Assembly (NCBI GenBank): GCA_964021475.1
Contig: CAXHYW010000001.1
Span: 1 to 27,706 of the forward strand
Length of the DNA: 27,706 bases
Reading direction: 5' to 3'
From: an uncultured Desulfobacteraceae bacterium
GTDB lineage: Bacteria > Desulfobacterota > Desulfobacteria > Desulfobacterales > Desulfobacteraceae
Shown: one piece after another, positions 750-20,297 of the stretch
How the letters are laid out: each line of letters starts with the position of its first letter
How positions within the stretch are numbered: position 1 is the stretch's first letter
The notes under the pieces: model-generated
Told to the model about the DNA's origin: nothing
The model's database searches: none
What the model saw: the letters and a program-made list of their open reading frames with translations, nothing else
Position numbers and translations under genes: made by a program

Positions 750-3700
750 ATGTCAGGACTTAATTCAACACTCAGCATAGCCAAAACAGCTATCGCTACC
801 CAACAATTCGGATTGAACGTAACCGGCCAGAATATTGCCAATGTAAATAACCCGGATTATAGTGTTCAAAATGCAGACCAGGTCAATCGGAAACCGGCCC
901 AATATGCGGGTTTCCTTTTCGGGACAGGGGTAGACATCAACCAGGTTCGGCAGAGTGTTGATCGCTTGCTTGAAGAGCGTTTGACAGGTGAGCGCTCCAC
1001 CCAGGCGGCCTTTGAAGAAGAGGAATCCTATATGCGGATTCTGGAGGGATTCTTTGATGAAACCTCCGACACCAGTGTCACCAGTCTTTTAACAGAATTT
1101 TGGAACGCCTGGCATGATATTTCGGACAATCCCCAGGGATCATCCGAGCGGGTGTCTGTTTTTGAAAGCGGTAAAAAATTGGCTTCCCGGTTTGAAACCG
1201 CTGTTCTGGATATGGATAATTTGTTGGCAGATATCACCACTGATATCAATTCCGCTGTTCAACAGATCAATGCAATCTCAAAACAAATTGCAGACCTGAA
1301 TCAGGAAATCATCTCCACGGAGATAAACCGCACCGCCAATGATCAACGGGATCAACGAAGTCGTTTGGTGGATGAACTGGGTGAGCTGATCGATATCAAT
1401 CTCTATGAACAGTCCAATGGCGGAATTACCATTAATGTGGCCAGTGGTTTCGGTCTGGTGAATGGGGTGGAGACGACTGAATTGGCCACCACCAGCACGG
1501 ATATCATCTGGAAAGGTTCTTCGGGGCAGGGCCAGGTCATAACGGACAAAATTATCAGCGGCAGAATCGGTGGTTTGCTTGAAATGCGGGATGAGATAAT
1601 CCCCAAATACAAGGCAGAGATGAACGAATTGTCCCGGGAAATGATATGGGCCATCAATTACCAACATTCACAAGGTGCTGGGTTGGAATATTTCAGCAGT
1701 CCTGTGACAGGAAATTATGCGACAGATGAAAGCGGCTGGCTGACAAGTTTTGAGTTTGGTGACAAAATTGATAATTCAAAAGATTTTACCATGTGGGTGG
1801 AAGACAAGACCAATGTGGACACCCTGTATAGCAAAATCAATATGGACATGGGCCTTTCCGCCGCGCGAATTACCAATTGGCAGGGTGTTTCCCAGGGATC
1901 GATTCAATCTATTTATAAATTAACCGTGGTGGATGAAGCGGTTTTGGGTGACAAGGAGGTCATGGAGTCAGATGGGGACGGACTGGCAACGGTTTGGCCA
2001 TCGGTTGCAACCTCGGGGGTATCCACCACACTTGATCGGGCCATTGCCGAGCAGACCCTGACCGTTTACGGCGGTCCTTCCGGGACCCGTGTCATTGAAG
2101 TTAAGGACATCGGTGACGGAGCCAAGCGGTCTGCTGCATCCATTGCGGCTGCCCTGAGCGATGTAGATGGGGTGACGGCCTATGCGTCTGAAACTTCTGC
2201 CAGCCTACAGCTGGTTGATAATACAGTACCTGTGCCAGTTTCTCTTTTCCCCAATACCGAGGATGGAGATGAAGTTCAGTATACCCTCTATGTGGACGGG
2301 ATTTTACAAAAACAAAGTTTTAACCGGGACGCATCCATTGGTACCCTTCAGGAGCAATTTCAAACCTCACTGTTGGCAGCGGTTGAATCCATTAATCAGA
2401 TCAATGAAGACAAAGACTTGTCTGCCAGTGGACTGACCCTTACAAGCAGTTCCGGAAAAACCCTGGGTATCCAGGATTTTGAAGTCCAGGATAATGCGGG
2501 GATTCGCATGGATACCTTTGCAAATTTTGATACCGGTGACAAGGTGACATTTGATATTGATTCAATCACCGTTCCTGCTCCGGGAACAGCAGCCGCCAGC
2601 ACAACTTCCGTGACGGTGGATCTAACCGGTATTGATACAACAGACGAGGCCAAAGTGTCCCTGGCGTTCACTGCCGCATTGAACACTGCCCTTGACGGAC
2701 AACCCTTTACGGTTCAACATGACCCCACCACAAATGCTGTCATCCTAAGAACAACAGATGGATCGGCCATTCGATTTCGCAATGGTGCTAATGATACCGG
2801 CGATGATGCGGTGGTTGATATTACGGAGTTAGGTGGCAGCTTGACCACATCCGGGGCCGCCGATACGGTCCTGCGGTTTGACAATGCCCCGGGCCCATCG
2901 GATCTGGTCCGGTATGATTCTATTACCTTGGCCACTGATTCCATTGGGTTTGTTAGCAAGGGAACGGGTGTGTTTCTTGCTGAAACCACGGGTGTTGGTG
3001 TTAAAAGTGGGGTGATTGCAGGAACGGTCTCCATCATCACCGATCCGGGGATGTCCATTCAATCCACCGTGTCCGGGGTGGCTTCTGGGGGGCTTTTTAG
3101 CAACATCGAGGCCAAGAAAGGCAGTTCCATTTTAACCCTGGGAGGGGAAGGCGGGTTTTCCGGATTTTCATCTGCGGGTGGAGAAATAATTTCCTTTAAG
3201 CTGGATGGTGCCGATATCTCGTTTTCAACCACTGCGGGTGCCGGAACATCAGACCTTCAGATGGCCCAATTGTTTAAGGATGAGATTGAGGCAGACTTGA
3301 TAACTGCCGGAATAGACGCCAATTATCAGGTCATTATGACCGGCAGTTCCGTATCCGTCATCAAGAATGTGGGCCTGGATGATCCCATCAAGCTGACCAA
3401 TTTTTCAGATACCGGTGGAAACAATGCCAAGTTAAAGGTTCGGACCGGAACCGGTAATGGTACCCATCAGCCCGAGAATGACACGCTGGATGCAGATCCC
3501 TCAAAAACCTACCGGAACTCAACCACTTCGACATTATACGGGGACGAAGGGGTGATCATGTGGGAACGGCTGGATAGTAACGGATTCACAACAGGGGTTT
3601 CGGGTCTTATTTCTGTGGAAGACGAAGGCCAGGTTTCTATTGTGGAAAATAACGTGACCACCATGACCTTTGATATCTCCAAGGGCAGTCTGGTTGCCGG

Positions 3701-19400: not shown

Positions 19401-20297
19401 TGCGTTCACCGAGGCCACAACGCCGTGACCGGAGGTCTTAGAGTTGATGGCTTTAACCAGGGAGCCGCTGGAATCGTTTGTCTGTACCTCAATGGCACCA
19501 ATGGTTTCTCCGTTGATGCTGAAACCCTTGTCTGTTGTACCGGCCGCAATATTCAAAGCGGTCTCACTTCTCACGGTTGCAGAGGCAGAGATCCCTAAGC
19601 TGTCACTGAGAAGATTTATGGCGTCGGCCACGGCACCCATGCTGTGTTCCCTGTCGATGGAGCCTTCGGTCAGGGACACATCCACGGACTTGATGTTGAA
19701 ATTCTTGTTCTGAAGATTACTGAAAATACTTAAGTCCACAGTACCGGCCTGACCGTTCTGGAGGGTCAGCTGGGTTGTGGTGGTGTGACCGATCTTGGTG
19801 GATTCCGAGCTTGCAATGGAAATTCCTACGGTCTCTCCTGAATAGGCGCCAATCTGAAATTGTTTGTTGGTGAATGCACCGGAAAGGAGCTTCTGATTAT
19901 TAAAAGATGTGGTCTTGGCAATGATGTCCAATTCTTCCATCAGTTTGTTGATATCAGCCTGGATGGCAGATCTTGATTCAGTGGTTTGACCGTCCTGTGC
20001 TGCCTGGATACTTTTGGTTTTGATTGTGTTGATGATGTTGATGGATTCGTCTAGGGCCGCATCAGCGGTCTGTACAATATTGATACCGTCATTGGCATTT
20101 TTGATAGCCTGTCCAAGACCATTGGCCTGGGATCTAAGTGAATCGGCAATGGACATGCCCGATGCATCGTCGGCAGCCTTGTTGATTCTTAAGCCGGATG
20201 ACAGTCTTTCAAGGGAGCTTGAAAGGGCGTTGTCATTTTTGATCATGTTTTTGTGTGCGTTCAGAGATGCGACGTTGGTATTGATTCGAAGTGCCAT
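16419..20297 (-). CDS. fliC: Giant major flagellin (1292 aa)
   Basis: Canonical start [14 protein letters not shown]...[17 protein letters not shown] and canonical end [41 protein letters not shown]. The start is the ATG at 20297 (GGAGG RBS), not the GTG at 20399. It has its own sigma28 promoter and terminator. Confidence 0.98.
   Translation of the reverse strand: [1292 protein letters not shown]
16782..19142 (-). repeat. ~36-42 aa hexad repeats in the major flagellin (~787 aa region, about 18-20 units)
   Basis: Examples: [39 protein letters not shown] (39 aa), [38 protein letters not shown] (38 aa), [36 protein letters not shown] (36 aa). Confidence 0.9.

Follow-up and report, generated by a model that had tools for sequence, protein, structure and literature searches.

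A complete late flagellar locus lies in the window, by which we mean the whole 27,706-nucleotide (nt) stretch analyzed here, positions 1 to 27,706 of contig CAXHYW010000001.1 (assembly GCA_964021475.1) from an uncultured Desulfobacteraceae bacterium. On the plus strand, flgN-flgK-flgL-csrA-fliW-flaA runs toward a convergent minus-strand series, flaB-fliD-fliS-orf-flaG. The products of four of these genes, FlgK and FlgL (both hook-associated proteins) and flagellins A and B, are giants at three to four times the usual size, while the cap protein FliD is not (Table 1). The sizes and coordinates that an earlier note on this DNA gave for these five proteins were exact on re-check, and its enterobacterial reference sizes match the solved Salmonella chains (FlgK 553, FlgL 317 and FliC 495 residues). 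We read the window as a Desulfobacteraceae late locus with very large surface insertions on canonical D0/D1 cores, in which the joint gigantism was inherited with the lineage and does not reflect an obligatory coupling of sizes; we put the probability of this reading at roughly 60%.

Giant junction proteins and flagellins

Pfam and NCBIfam bear out all of the gene assignments, and the equivalog models for FlgK, FlgL and CsrA all exceed their curated NCBIfam cut-offs, with TIGR02492 (flgK_ends) scoring 321 bits against FlgK (cut-off 170.75) and TIGR02550 scoring 192.3 bits against FlgL (cut-off 127.2). The gene order flgN-flgK-flgL, with gaps of 4 and 14 nt, also fits the context of FlgK, or hook-associated protein 1 (HAP1). 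The terminal domains that the earlier note had described as intact are present, as FlgK_D1 (residues 98-313) and Flg_bbr_C (1392-1431) in FlgK and as Flagellin_N and Flagellin_C at the two ends of FlgL and of both flagellins. In each giant protein, the extra mass is confined to the stretch bounded by the N- and C-terminal core helices, the same place that outer domains take in solved junctions and filaments; the cores themselves are ordinary.

The earlier proposal that each large protein carries a separate, unrelated family of repeats is right for FlgL, whose modules differ from the others, but the two flagellins share one family and FlgK has no repeat. Whole-protein self-BLAST missed the internal repeats, which windowed BLAST revealed in FlgL and the flagellins. 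In the DNA from 700 to 20450, Tandem Repeats Finder detected no tandem repeats; the protein repeats are too diverged.

In FlgK, conserved ends (residues 1-315 and 1323-1432) flank a beta-rich insert of ~1000 amino acids (aa) at residues ~316-1322. Pfam assigns PF22638 (E 2.6e-51) and PF06429 (E 1.2e-10), and the sequence matches in the PDB are the FlgKs of Salmonella and Campylobacter jejuni (9go6_A and 9gsx_L). An AlphaFold2 (AF2) model of residues 240-1432, with a predicted local distance difference test score (pLDDT) of 81.5, shows a string of beta-rich and alpha/beta domains. Its top Foldseek match is C. jejuni FlgK, and Salmonella FlgK and other flagellar outer domains are also among the best. 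Windowed BLAST gave no internal repeat in FlgK, Pfam gave no match to the Flagellin_IN motif (PF07196) at E <= 0.01, and a profile of the FlgL module gave no match to the insert (hhalign probability 4%). Searching the ESM Atlas with the insert returned sub-threshold leads only, to Flagellin_IN, FlgK and FlgE-D2 clusters.

FlgL is built differently. Five modules of ~120 aa (residues ~186-310, 420-545, 548-672, 676-792 and 796-912), which align with 29-36% mutual identity, and one all-beta domain (~310-420) all lie between the D0/D1 helices. In the AF2 model (pLDDT 83.8), the module consists of two strands, a long helix and three further strands (beta-beta-alpha-beta3). The protein matches PF00669 (E 1e-12), and its predicted core superposes on the solved FlgLs of Legionella, Xanthomonas, Salmonella, Bacillus and Campylobacter with VIA Z scores of 20-22.5 (root-mean-square deviation 2.1-4.1 Å over 195-262 residues), where plain flagellins reach Z of about 15-16. 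Foldseek places C. jejuni FlgL first (9gsx_A, E 1.5e-11) and the outer domains of the Geovibrio flagellin second (E 1.3e-10); the module profile had no significant match among PDB sequences or in Pfam.

Flagellins A and B, 36% identical overall, carry a common family of hexapeptide repeats at residues ~364-1244 and ~340-1198, respectively, giving inserts of ~860-880 residues with ~145 hexapeptides each. PF00132 scores 55.8 and 68.5 bits in the two proteins (cut-off 27) and LbH_EIF2B scores 55.6-55.9 bits (cut-off 54), residues 955-1048 of flagellin B show NCBIfam similarity to the LpxD/NeuD beta-helix, and the hydrophobic periodicity of the inserts gives autocorrelation peaks at lags 6, 12 and 18. 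From the Pfam and NCBIfam matches and the six-residue periodicity, we infer that the insert forms a left-handed beta-helix. This fold has 18 residues and a rise of 4.8 Å per turn; if the ~145 hexapeptides formed one continuous beta-helix, the result would be a rod roughly 23 nm long. Thr and Ser together make up 24-30% of the inserts.

The first ~400 aa of both proteins are of the Helicobacter/Campylobacter type, and flagellin B matches the NCBIfam flagellin A/B subfamilies. Solved flagellins in the PDB are matched at E 1e-103, for flagellin B by 9yh1, 6x80 and 9ygu over residues 1-364/398. Flagellin_N and Flagellin_C exceed their Pfam cut-offs, and fliS, fliD, flaG and fliW-csrA adjoin, as is the case for true flagellins. 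Both proteins, at 1414 and 1292 aa, are longer than the 1000 aa by which Thomson et al. (2018) define giant flagellins.

Most relatives have an additional minimal flagellin of ~260-300 aa elsewhere in the genome. In a member of the same genus as the window (G002; L100:6873-7709, plus strand), an orphan 278-aa flagellin gene lies between those for a PfkB kinase and a LuxR-type response regulator, in housekeeping surroundings with S-adenosylmethionine (SAM)-cycle genes and Lon nearby. The small orphan flagellin did not turn up in the window's genome, which is 83% complete; a search there for its neighborhood recovered only a regulator of 42% identity. In another relative (G013; L052:1337-3933, minus strand), the cluster flagellin is split into a 766-aa open reading frame (ORF) and a 97-aa ORF with the C-terminal domain, as the result of a frameshift or a stop close to the 3' end, or of misassembly.

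Table 1. Genes and other ORFs in the window, with coordinates in the numbering of the 27,706-nt stretch
Feature	Coordinates	Strand	Evidence and remarks
ORF upstream of flgN, 5'-open, 105 aa (FlgM-like position)	1..318	+	No family match
flgN, FlgK/FlgL chaperone, 188 aa	180..746	+	Pfam FlgN, E 3.6e-10; stop 4 nt 5' of flgK start
flgK, giant hook-associated protein 1, 1432 aa	750..5048	+	Pfam; TIGR02492; PDB sequence matches; AF2 model; Foldseek
flgL, giant hook-associated protein 3, 1038 aa	5062..8178	+	Pfam; TIGR02550; AF2 model; Foldseek; VIA; module alignment
csrA, post-transcriptional flagellin regulator, 80 aa	8192..8434	+	TIGR00202, 73.6 bits (cut-off 70.1); 3' end overlaps fliW start
fliW, flagellin-binding CsrA antagonist, 148 aa	8431..8877	+	Pfam FliW, E 5e-33
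Giant flagellin A, 1414 aa	8903..13147	+	Flagellin_N and Flagellin_C; Hexapep and LbH_EIF2B; repeats; periodicity
flaG, 134 aa	13125..13529	-	Pfam FlaG, E 1.6e-21
ORF between flaG and fliS, 162 aa (FliT-like position)	13543..14031	-	No family match; overlaps fliS end
fliS, flagellin chaperone, 163 aa	13985..14476	-	Pfam FliS, E 1.6e-25
fliD, filament cap, 561 aa	14562..16247	-	FliD_N, E 5e-17; FliD_C, E 3.4e-40; Flagellin_IN; NCBIfam FliD models
Giant flagellin B, 1292 aa from MALRINTNV	16419..20297	-	Pfam; PDB sequence matches; NCBIfam; ORF runs on to GTG at 20399
Maf-like glycosyltransferase with tetratricopeptide-repeat (TPR) tail (Maf-TPR), 986 aa	20477..23437	+	Pfam
B12-binding radical SAM protein, 675 aa	23434..25461	+	Pfam
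DUF2920 protein	25471..26628	-	Pfam
GDP-mannose 4,6-dehydratase	26658..27677	-	Pfam

Because csrA lies between flgL and fliW with flagellin A directly after, the locus carries a CsrA-FliW-flagellin partner-switch module. The genes at 20477-27677, divergent from flagellin B, form a putative flagellin glycosylation island.

Protein sizes within the order and across the phylum

We compared complete genes of 60 relatives within the order and of named loci from metagenome-assembled genomes (MAGs); they fall into two size regimes. In the giant regime, FlgK measures 1122-1435, FlgL 650-1386, flagellin 690-1414 and FliD 558-707 aa; in the small regime, the corresponding ranges are 458-590, 290-413, 388-488 and 467-478 aa. 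The loci closest to the window belong to Desulfobacteraceae (Desulfotignum, Desulfobacula, Desulfobacter and MAGs). The description of the cap as normal-sized is fair, as it is only 1.2-1.5 times the small-regime size. The hook protein is another matter, with FlgE of the family at 920-976 aa, more than twice the Salmonella size (G024:C1:912931, G002:C313:184993, G019:C1:5968209 and others); even G019, alone in the family in having junction and filament proteins of small size, has a large FlgE. In the window's own genome (G000, L034), a contig end truncates the hook gene, which encodes at least 615 aa.

In a tree restricted to the conserved FlgK ends, all 29 giant FlgKs, from the family and two neighboring families, group in one clade (SH-aLRT 93). 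On this tree, giant FlgK has a single origin, and it has kept ~1400 aa across the family and three neighboring families. The 'small' FlgKs of two family members (G025 and G026), considered as possible reversions, were ruled out as truncations at contig ends. Some genomes carry two complete giant junction sets (L069 and L075 in G001; L040 and L062 in G020; L043 and L056 in G035), with FlgL of ~770-1020 aa in one and ~650 aa in the other, each set having its own ~1400-aa FlgK from a distinct FlgK subclade. An 8.3-kb contig binned as 'Bacteroidales bacterium' (L010, JAOZQY010000120.1) encodes FlgK and FlgL 76-78% identical to those of the window; it nests inside Desulfobacteraceae on the FlgK tree and hence is probably mis-binned.

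We also sampled 150 genomes evenly across the phylum and found 11 further ones with FlgK of 968-1417 aa. FlgL is ordinary (294-317 aa) in 10 of the 11; flagellin length in these 10 genomes is 302-536 aa for six and 819-835 aa for three, and in the last one the only flagellin is truncated by a contig end. Only G161, a small-genome member of the order, has the full homologous giant trio. The converse occurs as well, with flagellins of 904-1024 aa alongside FlgK of ~675 aa, and FlgL of 743-778 aa alongside FlgK of ~672 aa. Most of the other giant FlgK inserts have no detectable homology to that of the window, and such inserts are found in at least five other families. Junction-protein and flagellin sizes are evolutionarily separable, and a large junction is therefore not simply the geometric consequence of a thick filament. 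As a general rule, the earlier proposal that the junction expanded to fit the diameter of the filament finds no support, since giant FlgK in the phylum usually accompanies ordinary FlgL and often ordinary flagellins; for this lineage, it may still hold.

It could be that the sizes have no functional link at all, such that axial proteins of this lineage gather and duplicate mobile outer-domain cassettes in their exposed loops, with the enlargements co-occurring through common descent alone. The behavior of FlgL is consistent with this explanation. Its length classes in relatives (~650, 772, 907, 1030 and 1386 aa) differ by steps of about one module, and in another family a 1373-aa FlgK (L089:2469-6590, minus strand, in genome G188) has an insert composed of ~seven copies of the ~120-aa FlgL-type module (phmmer E 6.6e-28), in a genome with FlgL of 294 aa and flagellins of ~300 aa. 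The FlgL-type module has evidently moved between junction proteins, being found in FlgL of the window and in FlgK of L089. The giant FlgK inserts without detectable homology in other families and the independence of sizes across the phylum also favor accretion.

The FlgK insert of the window, however, argues against this explanation. Across 28 relatives it is 40-76% identical over its full length, and a search with the insert alone returned at least 181 protein clusters, nearly all of 1400-1440 aa and all annotated FlgK, with Desulfospira joergensenii, Desulfobacula toluolica and D. phenolica as cultured carriers. Full-length identity at this level implies a conserved folded structure, unlike the typical hypervariable middle of a flagellin. 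Together, the near-constant length and the identity of the insert argue for purifying selection on a folded functional structure as opposed to purely neutral accretion, and the confident models of FlgK and FlgL (pLDDT 81-84) also count against the latter. On balance, we consider accretion with no functional link doubtful.

At the other extreme, FlgK and FlgL may have co-adapted to the giant flagellins, to match the filament diameter or to seed its outer layer, so that the sizes are functionally coupled. The check proposed in the earlier note, whether FlgK and FlgL lengths correlate with flagellin length among relatives, gives a divided answer. All three proteins are large throughout one clade and small in most neighboring families, the naive Spearman rank correlations of their lengths within the order are 0.43-0.68 over 28 clusters, and G161 again combines all three homologous enlargements. 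But because the giant FlgKs are one clade, the order-wide correlation amounts to approximately one evolutionary event, and among members of the giant clade the lengths show no co-scaling (rho 0.11-0.34, not significant); in the window's genus, flagellins range from 813 to 1414 aa against a FlgL of 1018-1038 aa throughout. An independent-pairs test on the FlgK tree had 2-3 usable contrasts, too few for significance, and in these FlgL and flagellin shifted the same way, never against each other.

Sister lineages combine a large FlgK with a small flagellin (FlgK 1529, FlgL 551 and flagellin 474 aa in one; 921, 529 and 488 aa in another), which suggests that junction enlargement came before flagellin enlargement. 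The 10 phylum genomes with giant FlgK and ordinary FlgL, six of them with ordinary flagellins too, are likewise hard to reconcile with coupling. The flagellin of Rhodobacter sphaeroides, an ordinary-sized protein, counts against it as well. That bacterium has a 1363-aa FlgK and a bulky junction (PMC7277832). Functional coupling of the sizes thus appears unlikely.

Comparison with known junctions and filaments

The best functional precedent for FlgK of the window is R. sphaeroides Fla1 FlgK1 (HAP1), which forms a 'bulky HAP region' visible as a bulge in micrographs and has a central region that is dispensable for assembly but required for swimming (PMC7277832). The two proteins share conserved ends around a central region of ~860-1000 residues and are ~3 times the size of Salmonella FlgK. 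They differ in that three Flagellin_IN motifs and internal repeats are reported for the R. sphaeroides insert (PMC7277832), whereas neither was detected in FlgK of the window, and in that FlgL and the flagellins are giant here too.

The C. jejuni hook-filament junction (PDB 9gsx), with a FlgK of 608 aa and a FlgL of 750 aa (PMC12221982), provides the best structural match for both of our models. Its FlgL is also multi-domain, its flagellins are of the same type over the first ~400 aa, and csrA-fliW control genes and Maf glycosylation occur in both systems. In comparison, FlgK and FlgL of the window are 2.4 and 1.4 times larger, FlgL sequence similarity is confined to residues 41-147 with none in the modules, and the flagellins bear the added ~860-residue hexapeptide insert.

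Flagellins of more than 1000 aa and thick filaments have been described in the gammaproteobacteria Bermanella marisrubri and Oleibacter marinus (Thomson et al., 2018, PMC6248924). As in the window, conserved D0/D1 ends enclose a repeated central region, although the repeat type differs, being hexapeptide and beta-helix-like in the window. The same bacteria have a second, FlgL-like Flagellin_N protein termed 'shorter', and junction proteins are not discussed in that work (PMC6248924). The 793-aa flagellin of Geovibrio thiophilus (PDB 9au6), which forms a 240-Å filament, has the largest solved flagellin outer domains (PMC11532411). It matches our FlgL model (second-best) and our FlgK model and resembles these proteins in its string of beta-rich outer domains and its acidic surface, but it is a flagellin rather than a junction protein and is without a hexapeptide region.

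It is established that very large outer layers sit on a canonical core in the hook, junction and filament of this lineage's flagellum alike. A thick, decorated filament may reasonably be expected by analogy with the giant-flagellin precedent (PMC6248924), as may a bulky junction collar by analogy with R. sphaeroides FlgK1 (PMC7277832). The adjacent Maf island and the Thr and Ser content of the flagellin inserts suggest that the outer layer is glycosylated. In the mechanism we propose, the cell would build a thick, probably glycosylated filament, and a bulky collar of 11 FlgK and 11 FlgL at its base would carry the outer layer across the hook-filament transition and, on the R. sphaeroides precedent, may stiffen that transition under load. 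The cap would stay small because it would act only as a folding chaperone of the D0/D1 core, and a small cap is what such a role, deduced from the Salmonella cap structure (PMC12221982), leads one to expect.

Several points weigh against our reading. The phylum-wide decoupling shows that no enlargement needs the others. The filament and collar are read here from genes, the mechanical role of the collar comes by analogy with an unrelated FlgK insert, and the beta-helix fold of the flagellin inserts is deduced from family matches and periodicity. In addition, the extra orphan flagellin of congeners leaves the composition of the filament uncertain.

Alternative roles and significance

The outer domains could instead serve mainly surface interaction or protection and not mechanics, through adhesion to particles or minerals or as a glycan shield against phages and grazers. 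The FlgK and FlgL inserts are acidic (Asp+Glu 14.5-15% versus Lys+Arg 5.6-5.8%), the inserts are rich in Thr and Ser, the Maf-type glycosylation island adjoins flaB, and adhesion through charge has been suggested for the Geovibrio flagellin, which is large and negatively charged (PMC11532411). Adhesion is hard to justify, however, for proteins present in just 11 copies each per flagellum and at its base, and the inserts gave no match to an adhesin or carbohydrate-binding family. We regard a surface role as the main function of the outer domains as quite unlikely.

A graded thick base, with giant FlgK, FlgL and minor or proximal giant flagellins below a filament built mostly of the small orphan flagellin, is very unlikely: the extra ~260-300-aa flagellin of most relatives, and its place among housekeeping genes in a congener, would allow it, but a search of the window's genome (83% complete) found no small flagellin and the giant flagellins hold the canonical positions beside fliS, fliD, flaG and csrA-fliW. 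We give a similarly slight chance to a distinct two-layer filament type, in which the ~23-nm beta-helix rods of the flagellins would pack as a continuous, glycosylated protein sheath and the FlgL modules and FlgK insert would make up a dedicated base ring to nucleate and anchor this layer at the hook; if this were true, junction enlargement would be functionally required in this lineage though not elsewhere.

Giant flagellins, giant FlgK and large multi-domain FlgL are each already in print. A literature search found no paper on hexapeptide or beta-helix flagellins, nor on FlgK or junction proteins of Desulfobacteraceae. What is new here is the joint picture, with the single origin and the decoupling of the enlargements outside the clade. 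If lineage inheritance of large surface insertions is the correct reading, the catalogue of flagellar architectures gains a lineage in which the outer layers have several times the mass of the core while the cap is small. The cultured carriers Desulfobacula toluolica, D. phenolica and Desulfospira joergensenii make the role of the ~2-MDa junction collar directly testable.

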